From the sequence record PP175015.1: a stretch of DNA of 64,000 nucleotides. One strand, 5' to 3'. Shown here one piece after another: positions 2,493-28,869 of this stretch (its first letter is position 1; each line of letters starts with the position of its first letter). The notes under the pieces are model-generated. The model was not told the origin of the DNA. It worked only from the letters and a program-made list of their open reading frames with translations, and did no database searches. The DNA comes from Escherichia phage UE-S5a. The translations under genes were made by a program, and so were the position numbers.

Positions 2493-2521
2493 AAAACCCC
2501 GCTCAGGCGGGGTTTGTTTTT
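2493..2521. terminator. Bidirectional rho-independent terminator between convergent genes
   Basis: ataaaa-CCCCGC-tcag-GCGGGG-tttgttttt: GC stem flanked by A-run and T-run. Confidence 0.6.
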
Positions 2522-2539
2522 ATCTATTAATAATATTTC

Positions 2540-3166
2540 TTATATAGAGTTTACTGTTTGCATTGCCCTAATTGATACTGCTGTTAGGGTAATTACTTGT
2601 CCTGAGATATTAAACATACCTAACTGAATACCGTCTACCATGAAAGGGTCAGTTGAACCAAGTGTGTAAGTAGCCAGTACGTTATCTCTGTTAGCAATGT
2701 CTGTACCCTGTACTTTAACACTAGCATCTGAACCTACTATCGTAATTCCATTGGTTCGTCTTGTTTGTGTTCTCCATTCCCTTGCTGTACCTGCACCACC
2801 TGCAATAATTCCTGATATACGAACACTGAACATTACCTGGGTATTCCTGGTTCTAATGGGGAACTTAAGATTTCCTTCTTCAATTGTTAGTGCTGCTGTA
2901 CCTCCAGGTGATTTAGTTATCCCTGGTAATGAAAAGTAATTGAACCAGGATTGGTCATTTACTGCCTGGCTCCCGGTCCATGTATACAAGTCCAGAAGAA
3001 ATGTGTCTTCTAACTCTGTTGGTGGGAAAGGTAGTAGTTCTGGGGGGATCTCTGAGATGTTATTAGCAGAAACTATTCGTTCCCCATAACTTCCCACGAC
3101 CAACAATCCCCCCTTCATTTTGCACACAACATCCCTACCACTTTGGAAAATATCTTTAATAGACAT
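2540..3166 (-). CDS. Hypothetical protein encoded antisense to the late module
   Basis: Track ORF 2540..3193; start moved to second ATG (MSIKDIF...) preceded by GAGG at 6 nt; no recognisable motif. Confidence 0.45.
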   Translation of the reverse strand: MSIKDIFQSGRDVVCKMKGGLLVVGSYGERIVSANNISEIPPELLPFPPTELEDTFLLDLYTWTGSQAVNDQSWFNYFSLPGITKSPGGTAALTIEEGNLKFPIRTRNTQVMFSVRISGIIAGGAGTAREWRTQTRRTNGITIVGSDASVKVQGTDIANRDNVLATYTLGSTDPFMVDGIQLGMFNISGQVITLTAVSIRAMQTVNSI

Positions 3167-3290
3167 AGTTACCTCGCAGTTGATACCAGACACTATGTCT
3201 GGATGTATCCCATCATACTAAGTATTATCTAAGAGTCATCTTATGATACGACCCTATTGGGGTTCTTAACTTTACAACTACGGTAATATT

Positions 3291-3620
3291 ATGAATGAAT
3301 CGGGCGAACTGCTTCTAGTCAGACTGGAGGAACGATTGAAGACTCTGTTTGAGAATCAGACGAGAGACAGACAGGACCGTGAGAAACTGGAGGAAACTCT
3401 GGGAGAATTACGGGATTCAATCAATGACATAGGCAATAGACTAAAAAATGTGGAGGATAGCTTAGCTAAGAATGAACCTACTATTGAAGAGTTCATCACC
3501 ATTAAGCATAAAGTTGTTGGTGCTGGAATTTTTGGTAAGTGGGTATGGGCTGGAGCAGGTGCAATTATTGGTGTATTGGCTGCTGCAAGACGGGAGATAT
3601 TCGCATGGTTCGCAGGCTAA
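3291..3620 (+). CDS. Coiled-coil protein with C-terminal transmembrane helix (holin/antiholin-associated candidate)
   Basis: 109 aa; charged coiled-coil N-terminus, C-terminal VVGAGIFGKWVWAGAGAIIGVLAAA; sits at head of lysis cassette. Confidence 0.45.
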   Translation: MNESGELLLVRLEERLKTLFENQTRDRQDREKLEETLGELRDSINDIGNRLKNVEDSLAKNEPTIEEFITIKHKVVGAGIFGKWVWAGAGAIIGVLAAARREIFAWFAG

Positions 3621-3865
3621 AAAGAAAAGTAGAGTTAGTACCTAACTGGAAAAGGTGTTGGAAGTGGGCATCCATTCAGATTAGTACACTTGGTTTAGTT
3701 CTATTTTCCGCTATAGATATTATCCAACCAATGGTGACAGGATTACCTCGTCACATCTTGGAAGATATTCCCCATGGTTCCAATATTGCAATCGCACTGT
3801 TTGCCTTAAACATCATAGGCAGATTAATACGATTCCGACCAAAGGAAGATTCACATGAAAGCTAA
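3605..3865 (+). CDS. Putative class II holin (two TMDs)
   Basis: Start moved to ATG 3605 (GGGAGA 8 nt upstream); 86 aa, basic N-terminus, two hydrophobic helices (ISTLGLVLFSAIDII, IAIALFALNIIGRLI), charged C-terminus; overlaps endolysin start. Confidence 0.5.
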   Translation: MVRRLKRKVELVPNWKRCWKWASIQISTLGLVLFSAIDIIQPMVTGLPRHILEDIPHGSNIAIALFALNIIGRLIRFRPKEDSHES

Positions 3866-4490
3866 ACAGAAACTTGCTGCAAAAGGTGGTGCAGTGGGAG
3901 GGGTTATCGCTGCTATTCTGGGGGCAGTGTTCTATATGGAAGGAGGTTATGTAAACAATCCTCGTGACCCAGGTGGGGAAACTAATCATGGTATTACCCA
4001 ATCAGTAGCTAAGACTCATAAAGAAGTTCTGGCTACTGAGTATGGTTGGGATGGTTCTATGAAGGGTTTATCTAAAGAGATGGCTGCTGAGATATACATT
4101 GATGACTATGTACTTAAACCTAACTTCGTAGCCTTCGCTGATATATCTCCTGCTGTAACGCATAAGCTAGTAGATGCTGGTGTTAATACTGGTGTAACCC
4201 GTCCTGCTAAGTGGTTGCAGATGTCTCTTAATGAAATGTCACGTAATGGCAAAGACTACCCTAAAATACAGGTTGATGGTAAAGTCGGTACAAGTACTGT
4301 TAATGCATATAAAGCATTACAGAAAAAACGGGGCAAAGTTGCAGCATGTCAGGTAATGATTAAGCTGCTTGATGCTAAACAACTGAACCACTATACCTCA
4401 TTAAACATGCCAGACTTTACGTATGGTTGGGTAGCTAACCGAATAGGCAATGTGCCACTGGAGGCATGTAATGAAGATGCTAATCTCTAA
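3855..4490 (+). CDS. Endolysin, N-acetylmuramidase (GH108 domain + peptidoglycan-binding domain), N4 gp61-like
   Basis: N-terminal EGGYVNNPRDPGGETNHGITQ is the GH108 signature; C-terminal region resembles PG_binding_3; RBS AAGGAAG. Confidence 0.8.
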   Translation: MKAKQKLAAKGGAVGGVIAAILGAVFYMEGGYVNNPRDPGGETNHGITQSVAKTHKEVLATEYGWDGSMKGLSKEMAAEIYIDDYVLKPNFVAFADISPAVTHKLVDAGVNTGVTRPAKWLQMSLNEMSRNGKDYPKIQVDGKVGTSTVNAYKALQKKRGKVAACQVMIKLLDAKQLNHYTSLNMPDFTYGWVANRIGNVPLEACNEDANL

Positions 4491-4977
4491 AGGTTGGCCT
4501 TATCTTCTGGTGGTGGTCCTTGGGGCCACCATTTACTTTTGGGGCAATTCCAATGGGCAGTCTACTGTTCAAAAGAAATGGGATGCCCAAAAGGTCGAAG
4601 ACCAAAAGGCAACGCAAAAATTACAGGACAAATACAATGCTCTCCAAAGAAACCATAGTTATGAAGTCGGGTTACTCACTTCCCGGTTGCAGACGGCTGA
4701 GAGTAATTACGCAAGCGAGCTTGCTCGCGTTAGCAGTGATTACGACAGCCGGATGCAACAGTCTGAAAGACGAGCATCGGTATATAAACGTCAAGCCGAA
4801 GCCGGAACCCTTGAGTGCAGAAGTCTTGCAAGCCATGCAGCCAGACTCGACAATAGTCTTGAAGAAGGCAGACGTTTGGTTGAAGAACTCCGGGCAACTG
4901 TTAGACTCCGTGACAGCCAACTAATTGAGTTGGGTAAACAGATTCAGGCTGACCGTAAACTTTTTGAACAGGAATAA
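4471..4977 (+). CDS. i-spanin (Rz-like)
   Basis: Start moved to ATG 4471 (GGAGG 6 nt upstream); N-terminal [24 protein letters not shown] followed by charged coiled-coil region; overlaps endolysin end. Confidence 0.6.
4661..4924 (+). CDS. o-spanin (Rz1-like lipoprotein) embedded in the +1 frame of the i-spanin gene
   Basis: Track ORF 4520..4924 trimmed to ATG 4661: [32 protein letters not shown] = signal peptide with lipobox-like TAGC, then short Pro-rich mature peptide. Confidence 0.55.
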   Translation: MKSGYSLPGCRRLRVITQASLLALAVITTAGCNSLKDEHRYINVKPKPEPLSAEVLQAMQPDSTIVLKKADVWLKNSGQLLDSVTAN

Positions 4978-4979
4978 CT

Positions 4980-7250
4980 ATGGAACACCAAGACACTTTT
5001 AAGCCTTTACCAGACCCGGCTCAATCAGAGAAGTTAACGGACTGGAAGAAGGAACCAAGTATCCAATTACTGAAGGGTGATTTGGAATCTGCTAAACCTG
5101 CTCACGATGCAATCATGGCACAGATTCGTGAGTGGAATGATTTAATGGAAGTAAAGGGTAAGGCTAAACCCCCAAAGGTTAAGGGACGCTCGCAAGTCCA
5201 GCCTAGACTGGTTCGCCGTCAGGCAGAGTGGCGTTATGCTCCATTGTCTGAACCATTCCTCTCGTCTAACAAACTATTTAAGGTAACTCCGGTTACTTTT
5301 GAAGATGAGTTAGCTGCACGCCAGAATGAGCTAGTTCTTAACTACCAATTCCGTACTCAGCTTAATAAAGTAAAACTGGTAGATGATTACGTGCATAGTG
5401 TCGTAGATGACGGTACTGGTATTGCTCGTATTGGTTGGGAACGTAAGACAGTTAAGATTAAAACAGAAACACCAGTCTTCCAGTTGTACCCAATTGAGAA
5501 CCAGGAACAAGCAGATATTCTTCAGCAGGCTTTGCAGCTTCAGGCAGAGAATCCTCGTGAGTATGATGAAACGATGCCAGAAGATATTAAGGAAGCTGTT
5601 AACTACTTCAATGAAACTGGAGAAGCTACTTATGCAATTCAGACAGGGGTCACTGAAGTAGAAGTAGAAAAAGCACTGGTTAACAGACCTACCGTTGAAA
5701 TGCTTAATCCTAATAACGTAGTTATTGACCCAAGCTGTAATGGTGATTTGGACAAGGCTCTTTATGCAGTCATCTCATTTGAGACTTGTAAAGCAGACCT
5801 CATGAAAAACAAGGACCGTTACCACAACCTGGATAAGATTGACTGGGAAAGTTCCAGTCCTATGACTGACCCAGACCATGAAAGTAAAACTCCAGGTGAC
5901 TTCCAGTTTAAGGATGCACTTCGCAAGAAAGTAATTGCTTATGAGTACTGGGGATTCTACGACATTAACGATGATGGTTCGCTGGAACCAATTGTTGCTA
6001 CCTGGATTGGTTCTACTCTTATTCGTATGGAGAAGAACCCATTCCCAGATGGTAAGTTACCATTGGTAGTTGTTCCTTATATGCCTCGTAAACGTGAACT
6101 CTATGGTGAAGCTGATGCTGAATTGCTAGGAGATAACCAAGCAATTCTTGGTGCAACCATGCGTGGGATGATTGACCTGTTGGGCCGAAGTGCAAATGGT
6201 CAACGTGGTTATCCTAAAGGGATGTTAGATACCCTGAACCGTCGTCGATACGATGATGGACAAGACTACGAATATAACCCAATGCAGGGCAATCCTAGTC
6301 AGGCCATTATGGAACACAAGTTCCCTGAGTTACCCCAGTCGGCAATAGTAATGACTCAGATGCAAAACCAGGAAGCAGAAGCACTAACGGGTGTTAAAGC
6401 ATTCTCGGGTGGTGTAACTGGTGAAGCTTACGGAGATGTAGCTGCTGGTATTCGTGGTGTACTAGATGCAGCATCCAAACGTGAGATGGCAATCCTTCGT
6501 CGATTAGCTAAGGGTATGGCAGACATTGGTACTAAGATTTGTGCAATGAATGCTGTGTTCTTATCTGAGAAAGAAGTAGTACGTATTACTAACGAGCAGT
6601 ACGTAGAGATTAACCGTGAAGACCTTAAAGGTAATTTCGACATTGAAGTTGATATTAATACTGCTGAGATTGATAACCAGAAATCCCAGGACTTGAGCTT
6701 CATGGTTCAAACGTTAGGTAATACGGTTGACCAGACTATTACGTTATCTCTTGTAGCTAAGATTGCAGAACTTAAACGTATGCCAGACCTTGCTCATGAG
6801 TTACGTACATGGCAACCACAACCAGACCCTATGGAAGAACAGCTTAAGCAATTGGCAATTCAGAAAGCACAGCTTGAGAACGAAGAGCTGCAAAGTAAGA
6901 TTGCACTCAATATGGCTAAGGCTAAAGAGGCTGCTTCTAGTGGTGACCTTAAAGATCTGGATTATCTGGAACAGGAATCTGGTACTAAACATGCTCGTGA
7001 CATGGAAAAACAAAAAGCACAATCCCAAGGAAACCAAAACCTTCAGATAACTAAGGCGTTGACAACACCTACTAAAGAAGGTGAAACTACCCCCAACATA
7101 TCTGCTGCTGTTGGATATAACGCTTTGACTAACGGGAACTCTATACCAGAACGTGACTTAGCTGCACAACAAGACCCAGCTTATTCACTTAGTTCCCAAT
7201 TCTATGACCCTAGCCAAGACCCAGCATCGGCTCTTGGCATGAACTTGTAA
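4980..7250 (+). CDS. Portal protein (N4 gp59-like)
   Basis: 756 aa; size and position between lysis cassette and capsid genes match N4 portal; acidic low-complexity C-terminus. Confidence 0.7.
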
Positions 7251-28472: not shown

Positions 28473-28713
28473 TACTATTTACCCATAGCTGGGAGGCTTT
28501 TGGTTCTTACCACGAAGACAGTCCACGCTGACTAGACTTGGGATTGATAGTCCCGTTCCTGTGGTAATTACTCAGGCTAGGATTTAAGGAGTTCCTATTC
28601 TCCAGCGAAATTCCCGTCGAGGGGAATAACAATACAATAGCAGTCACTGGACTGTCTTACCAGTGTTGTCTTTAGAGTGCGATGCAATCAGGACTATGTT
28701 ACTGCTGAATGGG

Positions 28714-28787
28714 TGTCCACTACTGGATTTGAACCAGTGACTTTCCGATTATTAGTCGGTTGCTTTCCCCGTCTAAGCTAAGCGGAC
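28714..28787 (-). tRNA. tRNA; anticodon loop reads CUAAUAA, i.e. anticodon AAU (formally Ile, unusual A34)
   Basis: Hand fold: acceptor GTCCGCT/AGTGGAC (one G-U), D-stem GCTT/AAGC, anticodon stem CCGA/TCGG, T-arm ACTGG-TTCAAAT-CCAGT; no encoded CCA. Confidence 0.55.
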
Positions 28788-28793
28788 ATAATA

Positions 28794-28869
28794 TGGTTAC
28801 CCGGACAGGATTCGAACCTGCGTCCTAGTTGGTTTACTAGTGGGGCTTTACCACTAAGCCTACCGGGTA
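28794..28869 (-). tRNA. tRNA with encoded CCA; anticodon arm non-canonical by hand fold (identity unresolved)
   Basis: Perfect acceptor TACCCGG/CCGGGTA, discriminator A, CCA encoded; D-stem GGCT/AGCC; T-arm GCAGG-TTCGAAT-CCTGT; anticodon region folds as CTAGT/ACTAG with a 6-nt loop. Confidence 0.5.

Follow-up and report, generated by a model that had tools for sequence, protein, structure and literature searches.

A Gamaleyavirus lysis cassette with a predicted pinholin, SAR endolysin and two-component spanin, orthologous to that of phage N4

The window analyzed here is a 64,000-nucleotide stretch of Escherichia phage UE-S5a (PP175015.1), and its positions 3291–4977 carry five real genes on the + strand (Table 1). 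These genes probably constitute, in Gamaleyavirus (G7C-like, N4-like podophages), the counterpart of the N4 gp63-gp62-gp61-gp60/gp60a cassette, a pinholin, SAR-endolysin and two-component-spanin system in which the roles are assigned by orthology to N4. The five proteins are one-to-one orthologs of N4 gp63, gp62, gp61, gp60 and gp60a, with 55–68% identity in end-to-end alignments. Domain and family matches, hydropathy, SAR composition and the lipobox are consistent with the assigned lysis roles. TMDs were judged by hydropathy (Kyte-Doolittle 19-residue mean) and the lipobox by a PROSITE PS51257-like rule; a search of NCBIfam returned nothing for four of the five proteins. Our analysis establishes the anatomy and the orthology of a cassette that was already known, its sequence being in GenBank and its N4 homolog having been dissected experimentally.

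Table 1. Positions in the window of the cassette genes and of the sequence elements within them
Feature	Coordinates	Strand	Description
gp63-like protein, 109 aa	3291..3620	+	N-terminal cytoplasmic helical/coiled-coil domain, juxtamembrane PTIEEFITIKHKVVGAG, one Gly/Ala-rich C-terminal TMD VVGAGIFGKWVWAGAGAIIGVLAAA; predicted pinholin
Possible internal start of the gp63-like gene	3326..3338	+	GGAGG, 5 nt, in-frame TTG (codon 16, 3336), giving a 94-aa isoform
gp62-like protein, 86 aa	ATG 3605..3865	+	Two TMDs, basic N-terminus, N-in/C-in by charge; predicted accessory lysis regulator with slow holin-like activity
SAR endolysin, 211 aa	3855..4490	+	SAR domain ~7–27 (Gly/Ala-rich, lysine-flanked), GH108 N-acetylmuramidase domain, PG_binding_3 domain
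i-spanin, 168 aa	ATG 4471..4977	+	N-terminal TMD and helical periplasmic domain
Hairpin, 11-bp stem / 3-nt loop	4509..4533	+	GGTGGTGGTCC-TTG-GGGCCACCATT, then TACTTTTGG; within the i-spanin TMD-coding sequence
o-spanin lipoprotein, 87-aa precursor (95 aa from ATG 4637)	ATG 4661..4924	+	Wholly inside the i-spanin gene, +1 frame

As originally predicted, the lysis cassette is compact and its genes overlap: the five ORFs lie on the + strand, and neighboring genes overlap by 16, 11 and 20 nt. Escherichia phage UE-M3 (Gamaleyavirus, Schitoviridae) has a cassette of 100% identical DNA, and at least 80% of the stretch is covered in 57 phage records. The order gp63-gp62-endolysin-spanins-portal is kept in N4-like phages of Achromobacter, Erwinia, Stenotrophomonas, Pseudomonas, Klebsiella and Burkholderia. 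A consensus scan of the + strand between 3194 and 3290 revealed no sigma-70 promoter for the cassette. The late promoters of N4 are poor matches to the consensus, and the negative scan is therefore uninformative. Antisense ORFs within the cassette (runs of up to 82–86 codons) were rejected as genes, because their position is unconserved and none is present in the N4 spanin region.

The likeness to N4 extends to the layout. In both phages the five genes share one order and immediately precede the portal gene, the gp63/gp62 overlap is 16 nt and the gp61/gp60 overlap is 20 nt, the mature o-spanin has 56 aa, the gp63 juxtamembrane motif is identical, the internal gp63 start has an equal position, and a hairpin lies in the 5′ region of the i-spanin gene. 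The two cassettes differ, however, in genus (Enquatrovirus for N4 vs. Gamaleyavirus here), in the o-spanin signal peptide, which is quite unlike that of N4, in the residue at lipobox position −3 (Thr here vs. Ile in N4), in the codon at the internal gp63 start (TTG here vs. ATG in N4) and in the upstream neighbor, a reverse-strand accessory ORF here and gp64 in N4. Lysis inhibition, which N4 displays, is reportedly absent from G7C-type phages.

In N4, gp63, with one C-terminal TMD, is the pinholin, and its deletion is tolerated only when the SAR domain of the endolysin carries suppressors; gp61, a muramidase associated with the membrane, is a SAR endolysin; and the spanins gp60/gp60a complement a lambda Rz/Rz1 amber defect (bioRxiv 10.1101/2025.11.12.688109). 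The characterization of gp61 is credited there to earlier work (Stojkovic and Rothman-Denes, 2007, as cited in bioRxiv 10.1101/2025.11.12.688109). N4 gp62, with two TMDs, is described as a non-essential lysis regulator with a slow holin-like activity that acts only after ~2 h (bioRxiv 10.1101/2025.11.12.688109). The source of these data is a preprint, and what gp62 does is as yet loosely defined.

The first ORF heads the cassette, with the gp62-like gene and a SAR endolysin as its partners. A full-length global alignment with N4 gp63 gave 67% identity (109 vs. 110 aa; tblastn E 8e-24). The protein matched phrog_5211 (E 3e-50), and no match was found in Pfam, NCBIfam or structural families. The heptad register is unbroken over residues ~8–58, with L, I, V, M or F at 12 of 16 a/d positions vs. 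a background of 28%, and the single hydropathy peak is C-terminal (residues 80–98, mean 1.59 over 19 residues). The 17-residue juxtamembrane “Receiver” stretch PTIEEFITIKHKVVGAG is 100% identical between the two proteins. Residues T64 and T70 correspond to T65 and T71 of N4 gp63, which are sites of rapid-lysis alleles, and are identical to them. An AF2 single-sequence model was all-helical, at low confidence (pLDDT 53). The topology of the protein is ambiguous from its flanking charges. When the protein was used as a query, the best 120 matches were almost all near-identical Gamaleyavirus sequences.

Residues 1–16 of the gp63-like protein are kept across nine genera, with E3, R11 and E14 invariant, and codons 11–12 differ from those of phage St11Ph5 by synonymous changes only; ATG 3291 is therefore a real start. 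The in-frame TTG at codon 16 aligns with the alternative start Met17 of N4 gp63, with GGAGGAAcg upstream in both. Five other lineages have CTG or TTC at this position, and the internal start is thus not conserved family-wide. Because the Shine-Dalgarno sequence is poor at ATG 3291 and perfect at TTG 3336, it is uncertain which isoform is active. The UE-M3 GenBank record annotates the short form alone.

The second ORF has two hydrophobic segments (hydropathy 1.79 and 1.46), matches Pfam DUF7940 (PF25612; 53.8 bits vs. a cut-off of 27) and phrog_1356 “holin” (E 3e-30), and is 63% identical to N4 gp62. The reading frame continues upstream for 22 codons (GTG 3539 / ATG 3545) in six of nine lineages, but this extension is closed in the Erwinia, Pseudomonas and Stenotrophomonas phages, so that the 86-aa form is the conserved core. 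We considered the longer form from GTG 3539, which matches the 109-aa N4 form of the preprint, and rejected it as the true gene, as it is closed in these three lineages and lacks a Shine-Dalgarno sequence; the extension is treated as optional.

These data, read through the N4 orthologs, suggest that (i) the first ORF most likely encodes the primary pinholin, not an antiholin; and (ii) the two-TMD protein is most likely an accessory protein. The original prediction had assigned the roles the other way around, with 3605–3865 as the holin, which would time lysis, and 3291–3620 as a possible antiholin or separate regulator, which would restrain it. This assignment is unlikely and was probably inverted, since the N4 ortholog of the first ORF is lethal alone and accelerates lysis. 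Several observations speak for it. The phrog_1356 label is “holin”, and GenBank records give the gp62 homolog that name. The gp63 homolog of Stenotrophomonas phage Piffle is a “putative antiholin” in the annotation of the Center for Phage Technology. N4 gp62 forms triggerable lethal holes and alone eventually releases the soluble lambda endolysin, and the gp62 and gp63 genes co-occur in 60 of 65 N4-like genomes (bioRxiv 10.1101/2025.11.12.688109). Gamaleyavirus, moreover, might use the two proteins differently from N4. Against it, N4 gp63 alone complemented the defect of the phage 21 pinholin (S21), but not that of lambda S, and killed immediately and irreversibly after depolarization; deletion of gp62 left plasmid-driven lysis unchanged; and >60 rapid-lysis isolates yielded six gp63 changes and zero gp62 mutants (bioRxiv 10.1101/2025.11.12.688109). 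The protein in the window is not only 67% identical to N4 gp63 but identical to it in the functionally mapped region. Of the predicted two-TMD holin, then, the two TMDs and the orthology to a protein with triggerable holin-like activity stand, but in N4 that protein is a non-essential regulator.

A second alternative, which we regard as very improbable, is that in Gamaleyavirus both membrane proteins are redundant holins, either of which suffices and neither of which is a dedicated regulator. In the N4 plasmid system gp62 or gp63 alone gave fairly rapid lysis, with a delay of ~20 min when gp63 was absent (bioRxiv 10.1101/2025.11.12.688109), and the report that G7C lacks lysis inhibition would also fit redundancy. 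The two proteins, however, are unrelated in sequence and topology, and they are conserved together in phages of very distant hosts, which speaks for roles that are distinct and not redundant. The idea that the first ORF encodes a structural component of the virion and stands outside the lysis cassette has next to no chance of being correct: most GenBank and UniRef records use tail names for it (“tail length tape-measure protein” or “tail needle protein”), automated annotators link long coiled-coils to tape-measure and needle proteins, and the ORF adjoins tail-spike genes, but the protein has merely 109 aa, with a C-terminal TMD and none of the Pfam, NCBIfam or structural family matches sought, its gene shares the last 16 nt with the next lysis gene and always heads the lysis cassette across the family while the upstream neighbor varies, its N4 ortholog has a demonstrated lysis function, and to our knowledge podophages have no tape measure of this kind.

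The “Receiver” is a motif proposed to receive the lysis-inhibition signal in N4 (bioRxiv 10.1101/2025.11.12.688109). Its identity in a lineage reported to lack lysis inhibition argues for an intrinsic gating role rather than one specific to lysis inhibition. Regulation of the cassette in G7C-type phages may differ from that in N4 despite the identical motif.

The prediction of a GH108 endolysin was confirmed by Pfam Glyco_hydro_108 (PF05838; 71.8 bits vs. a cut-off of 21.2), and PG_binding_3 (PF09374) was also matched (32.6 bits vs. a cut-off of 24.6). The protein is 68% identical to N4 gp61 and has an EGGY motif at residues 29–32. Its N-terminal SAR segment, LAAKGGAVGGVIAAILGAVFY, is preceded by MKAKQK and has a Gly+Ala content of 52%, and the Gly residues that align with the SAR domain of N4 gp61 are conserved. 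The original prediction had missed this domain. The presence of an N-terminal SAR domain argues for a pinholin/SAR-endolysin system and not a canonical large-hole holin system. By orthology to N4 gp61, the endolysin is predicted to be membrane-tethered via the SAR domain and freed on membrane depolarization.

The nearest solved structures were 6v3z (E 5e-27) and 6v40 (E 4e-20). These TtsA-type muramidases of type 10 secretion systems (PDB 6v3z Sen1395, 6v40) share the two-domain GH108 and PG_binding_3 architecture; they are bacterial and secretion-associated, whereas the phage enzyme adds an N-terminal SAR domain. With 57.7 bits vs. a cut-off of 240, the endolysin is related to the NCBIfam equivalog NF040573, “holin-associated N-acetylmuramidase”, but is not a member.

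The predicted logic is that of phage 21 S21/R21, in which a small-hole holin depolarizes the membrane and a membrane-tethered SAR endolysin is released, the roles here being assigned by N4 orthology. The phage 21 proteins nevertheless have no sequence relationship to the present cassette. S21 has two TMDs, the first of which is a SAR domain, whereas gp63-type proteins have one C-terminal TMD and a cytoplasmic coiled-coil domain of ~75 aa; and R21 is of the T4-lysozyme type, in contrast to the GH108 muramidase with PG_binding_3 found here.

The i-spanin, at 55% identity to N4 gp60, matched phrog_6197 “Rz-like spanin” (E 1e-77) and has its hydropathy peak at residues 3–21. ATG 4471 is preceded at 7 nt by a GGAGG, which ATG 4450 lacks. 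The o-spanin, which had been predicted as a lipoprotein embedded in the +1 frame, is borne out: Cys32 (codon 4754–4756) satisfies the lipobox rule and leaves a mature protein of 56 aa, and nine of nine diverged Schitoviridae loci examined held an embedded ORF in the +1 frame whose lipobox Cys leaves 56–63 aa of mature protein. The embedded frame is more than chance; codon shuffles produced a +1 run as long as the 146 open codons inside the i-spanin gene in 0.36% of cases. N4 gp60a (also 56 aa) closely resembles the mature sequence, and the o-spanin ends 53 nt ahead of the i-spanin stop. Thr at lipobox position −3 is atypical, other lineages having I or L.

The arrangement is that of lambda Rz/Rz1, with the o-spanin lipoprotein gene embedded in the +1 frame of an i-spanin that has an N-terminal TMD and a helical periplasmic domain. 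In contrast to lambda, the spanin family here is phrog_6197, with only weak matches to other Rz-like phrogs, the mature o-spanin has no cysteine besides the lipidated one, and the i-spanin has one periplasmic Cys.

From the N4 orthologs we infer the following pathway. Late in infection, the cassette genes would be expressed as a tightly packed unit; each downstream start codon, Shine-Dalgarno sequence included, falls within the 3′-terminal part of the gene before it, an arrangement favorable to translational coupling. The gp63-like protein would insert in the inner membrane via its single C-terminal TMD, with the coiled-coil N-terminal domain in the cytoplasm, and once accumulated would trigger to form small lethal holes, collapsing the proton-motive force. 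The GH108 muramidase, presumably a Sec-exported enzyme kept inactive at the membrane until depolarization frees the SAR domain, would then degrade peptidoglycan all around the cell. The i-spanin in the inner membrane and the lipoprotein o-spanin in the outer membrane would form a periplasm-spanning complex, which would disrupt the outer membrane once the murein mesh is gone. The gp62-like two-TMD protein would be an accessory, dispensable component with slow, triggerable hole-forming activity that modulates or backs up release of the SAR endolysin.

The hairpin inside the i-spanin gene begins 19 nt past the endolysin stop, both here and in N4, and 7–75 nt past it in the other lineages measured. 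It was flagged by a terminator-like scan. Its RNA folds with −25.6 kcal/mol (z −4.3), and none of 200 shuffles was equally stable; its stability also exceeded that of synonymous-codon randomizations of the same peptide (z −3.5). The homologous region was likewise over-stable relative to synonymous randomizations in 24 of 46 distinct relatives, compared with 1–4 of 31 and 2 of 21 in control regions. N4 and the L019 lineage have the hairpin at the same position as here, with four doubly compensated pairs and 93% of cells paired vs. 40–61% in slid controls. We tentatively suggest, as a possibility somewhat less probable than its opposite, that the hairpin has been selected as a regulatory RNA element. 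Many Schitoviridae lineages retain it at this place by way of compensatory, even non-synonymous, changes.

A family-wide canonical intrinsic terminator was rejected: the U content of the tract does not exceed what the encoded amino acids impose, and several lineages with strong hairpins have no such tract. Termination is thus one candidate function among others, and the hairpin could act as a partial terminator or attenuator, an RNA-processing site or an mRNA (3′-end) stabilizer. If so, a boundary would fall between the pinholin-regulator-endolysin unit and the spanin and structural genes, and the hairpin would determine the ratio at which the two sides are expressed. We found no description of such a hairpin for N4-like lysis cassettes in the papers searched, and its conservation offers a small lead on expression balance within the cassette.

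The cassette itself matters little for discovery, but has some practical value for annotation. Most GenBank records name the gp63 homolog “tail length tape-measure protein”, and this label is wrong; the gp63-type pinholin is widely mislabeled as a tape-measure or tail needle protein and often shortened to the 94-aa form, and the “holin” label sits on the gp62-type accessory protein. The embedded o-spanin is frequently unannotated, the identical UE-M3 record included; in phage St11Ph5 it is annotated as gp60.1.

The ORF listing and a direct reading of window 3100-5200 resolved the lysis cassette into five + strand genes, located exactly as in the original prediction. Successive genes overlap by 16, 11 and 20 nt, the o-spanin ORF ends 53 nt short of the i-spanin stop, and the portal gene (PF23899, E 5e-151) lies 2 nt past that stop. 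All five ORFs were independently supported, confirming the compact, overlapping cassette of the original prediction. The first protein, described there as a coiled-coil membrane protein, matches phrog_5211 (E 3e-50). Its residues ~8-58 keep a single heptad register, in which 12 of the 16 a/d positions are LIVMF (background 28%), and its one hydrophobic segment is C-terminal. The gp62-like protein has two hydrophobic segments, an above-threshold Pfam DUF7940 match and a match to phrog_1356 ('holin'). The GH108 endolysin was also recovered, with GH108 and PG_binding_3 domains and an N-terminal segment of 52% Gly+Ala preceded by MKAKQK.

The i-spanin matches phrog_6197 ('Rz-like spanin', E 1e-77) and contains an open +1 run of 146 codons, a length reached in just 0.36% of codon shuffles. 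Within this run, the o-spanin has a Cys at residue 32 that conforms to a PROSITE-type lipobox rule, leaving a mature protein of 56 aa. All nine diverged loci examined have an embedded +1 ORF with a lipobox Cys, its mature part being 56-63 aa long and containing the core ...INVKP...LQAMQP.ST..LKKAD.W..NSG.LLDSV.

Features of the lysis cassette and its upstream region (window coordinates; identities from global protein alignments)
Feature	Position	Strand	Details	N4 ortholog (identity)
gp63-like gene	3291-3620	+	109 aa	gp63 (67%)
gp62-like gene	3605-3865	+	86 aa, counted from ATG with GGGAG upstream	gp62 (63%)
Endolysin gene	3855-4490	+	211 aa	gp61 (68%)
i-spanin gene	4471-4977	+	168 aa; ATG with GGAGG 7 nt upstream preferred over ATG 4450	gp60 (55%)
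o-spanin gene	4661-4924	+	87 aa, or 95 aa if from ATG 4637; +1 frame of i-spanin	
Stem-loop	4509-4533	+	11 bp, 3-nt loop, then TACTTTTGG; flagged by terminator scan	
Accessory ORF	2540-3193 (3166 from ATG annotated in UE-M3)	-	217 aa or 208 aa; between tail-spike gene and lysis cassette	
Strong GC-rich hairpin	2494-2515		AAACCCCGC-TCAG-GCGGGGTTT, T-runs on both sides	
Small hairpin	3187-3201		CAGACA-cta-TGTCTG; divergent intergenic region upstream of gp63-like gene	
Small hairpin	3250-3264		GACCC-tatt-GGGGT; same intergenic region	

Over 3200-5000 the window matches Escherichia phage UE-M3 (Schitoviridae, Enquatrovirinae, Gamaleyavirus) at 100% identity and many further G7C-like coliphages at 95-99%, and 57 phage records span 80% or more of this segment. 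The annotation of phage St11Ph5 follows N4 numbering, with the five genes named gp63, gp62, gp61, gp60.2 and gp60.1. The gene order, with the portal gene next, is common to N4 and to N4-like phages of Achromobacter, Erwinia, Stenotrophomonas, Pseudomonas, Klebsiella and Burkholderia. The mature part of the embedded N4 ORF gp60a is, at 56 aa, as long as that of the window o-spanin; the two signal peptides are markedly unlike. At lipobox position -3 the window protein has Thr, and other lineages have Ile or Leu; its Cys is residue 32 from ATG 4661 (usual range 15-35) and residue 40 from ATG 4637. The cassette is of a known kind, already annotated and experimentally characterised, and the observation was correct and well delimited.

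The N4 cassette was dissected in a preprint from the Ramsey laboratory, in which plasmid-borne expression of gp60-gp63 lysed E. coli in ~25 min (bioRxiv 10.1101/2025.11.12.688109). There, gp61 was a signal-anchor-release (SAR) endolysin that caused slow lysis alone and complemented endolysin defects whether paired with a large-hole holin or with a pinholin; gp60/gp60a complemented a lambda Rz/Rz1 defect. N4 gp63, which killed cells irreversibly, complemented a pinholin defect of phage 21 and failed to complement one in lambda S. Six rapid-lysis changes in gp63 clustered beside the TMD in the authors' 'Receiver domain', with T65I and T71A rebuilt and confirmed, and a gp63 deletion was obtained only alongside suppressors in the SAR domain of gp61 (bioRxiv 10.1101/2025.11.12.688109). 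Taken together, the complementation pattern, irreversible killing, rapid-lysis changes and suppressor-dependent deletion identify N4 gp63 as the pinholin. Deletion of gp62, in contrast, left plasmid-driven lysis unchanged, and gp62 was hit in none of >60 rapid-lysis isolates; its hole-forming activity was only late and gradual, and the authors termed it a 'lysis regulator' (bioRxiv 10.1101/2025.11.12.688109).

The window gp63-like protein is identical to N4 gp63 over the entire Receiver stretch PTIEEFITIKHKVVGAG, including the T65 and T71 equivalents, and the two TMDs are near-identical. By orthology, the 3291-3620 product is most likely the primary pinholin rather than an antiholin, one of the two roles offered in the original prediction. 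The gp62-like 'two-TMD holin' is most likely an accessory protein: its two hydrophobic segments and the triggerable holin-like activity of N4 gp62 agree with the earlier description, but the dispensability of N4 gp62 argues against a main holin role. The reading of the cassette is thus supported in part, with the roles of its first two genes swapped and with the addition of the endolysin SAR domain, which defines the lysis mechanism and was absent from the earlier account. Older annotation took the same view as that account, the gp63 and gp62 homologs of phage Piffle being named 'putative antiholin' and 'holin'. The common database name of the gp63-like protein, 'tail length tape-measure protein', and its UE-M3 name, 'tail needle protein', are not credible for a 109-aa protein with a TMD that always heads the lysis cassette. 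This misnaming is widespread: most GenBank/UniRef records label gp63-type pinholins 'tail length tape-measure protein (T)' or 'tail needle protein', and one JGI record has 'DUF342 family'.

The anatomy and orthology of the cassette, combined with N4 and the established pinholin/SAR-endolysin/spanin model, suggest the following course of lysis. The pinholin would build up in the inner membrane and trigger, collapsing the proton-motive force. The SAR domain of the GH108 muramidase, presumably already exported and membrane-tethered, would then exit the bilayer to give active enzyme. Once peptidoglycan is degraded, the i-spanin/o-spanin complex would disrupt the outer membrane, and the gp62-like protein might modulate or back up endolysin release. 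N4 lysis inhibition is reportedly absent from G7C-type phages, yet the Receiver motif is identical, which points to a motif intrinsic to pinholin gating and to lysis-inhibition determinants elsewhere.

In nine genera the first 16 residues of the gp63-like protein are conserved (E3, R11 and E14 invariant), and codons 11-12 differ from St11Ph5 only synonymously; ATG 3291 is therefore a genuine start, despite its weak Shine-Dalgarno. An in-frame TTG at 3336, with GGAGG upstream at 5-nt spacing, aligns exactly with the alternative start Met17 of N4 gp63 and has the same upstream motif, making a second, 94-aa isoform possible in Enquatrovirinae. The dual start is not a family feature, because five other lineages have CTG or TTC at this position. 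Database entries for gp63-type proteins are often shortened to the 94-aa form that begins at the internal TTG. The gp62-like frame is open 22 codons further upstream (GTG 3539, ATG 3545), corresponding to the preprint's 109-aa N4 form; this extension lacks a Shine-Dalgarno and is closed in three of nine lineages.

The stem-loop at 4509-4533 lies within the i-spanin TMD-coding sequence, starting 19 nt past the endolysin stop. It is conserved, and is the sole lead in the cassette that seems to be undescribed. Its folding energy is -25.6 kcal/mol (z -4.3), with no equally stable sequence among 200 shuffles. In N4 the homologous codons form a different hairpin, of 14 bp with a U-run after it (3662-3692 in the N4 locus L003), and the centre of a Klebsiella phage hairpin lies within 1.5 nt of the same position. 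For 51 IMG/VR loci encoding i-spanin relatives (46 distinct sequences), synonymous-codon randomisations of the same peptide served as the null for the lowest-energy 40-nt window around the TMD-coding region. Mean z came to -1.9, with p <= 0.05 in 24 of the 46. Controls were near null: three endolysin-internal regions gave mean z -0.15 to -0.46 (significant in 1-4 of 31), and the Gly/Ala-rich SAR-coding region -0.68 (2 of 21). In an Enquatrovirinae alignment the 11-bp helix was 93% paired, against 40-61% in slid controls, and four pairs had changed on both sides (compensatory), covariation evidence limited by an alignment of eight sequences from ~five lineages.

There was no U-tract excess beyond the amino-acid requirement, and several lineages keeping a strong hairpin lack the U-tract, so that a canonical terminator is just one option. 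Of the transcript 3' ends mapped in LUZ7, an N4-like Pseudomonas phage, nearly half fall within the following gene, just past the preceding one (PMC9163698), which makes an embedded attenuator plausible. Attenuation, RNA processing and mRNA stabilisation are candidate functions of the hairpin.

Antisense genes in the cassette were rejected, the antisense stop-free runs not being conserved. A + strand scan upstream of the gp63-like gene found no consensus sigma-70 promoter; in most of the other N4-like phages a terminator-like hairpin precedes the gp63 homolog by 20-40 nt. The hairpin at 2494-2515 is likely a bidirectional terminator; on either side of it lie the ends of the tail-spike gene (2414) and of the convergent reverse ORF (2540). 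This reverse ORF matches phrog_17779 (unknown function), and has no Pfam match; UE-M3 names it 'tail needle knob', and some Salmonella N4-like phages 'protease'. Only some Gamaleyaviruses carry it, others retaining a ~30-aa C-terminal remnant, and its C-terminal two-thirds resemble Aeromonas and Klebsiella phage proteins.

Pieces of both the gp63-like gene (aa 22-83 at 74% identity) and the reverse ORF (aa 136-217 at ~92%) lie unannotated in ~155-kb non-N4-like phage genomes: JX181829.1 (Salmonella phage SKML-39, positions 1-186 and 4897-5131), ON184125.1, OR776998.1 and OQ973471.1. These may be traces left by an exchange of tail-spike modules with G7C-like phages. The 784-aa tail-spike itself (60-2414) has a TSP1/Gp66-type N-terminal domain and a C-terminal Peptidase_S74 intramolecular chaperone, and is annotated 'K5 lyase' in UE-M3, with 'endosialidase' before it; the capsule-targeting tail-spike set differs from that of St11Ph5. 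Elsewhere in the window, at 28710-28869 (- strand), ARAGORN called two adjoining tRNA-like genes, one for tRNA-Ile (anticodon aat), the other given an abnormal anticodon of two bases.
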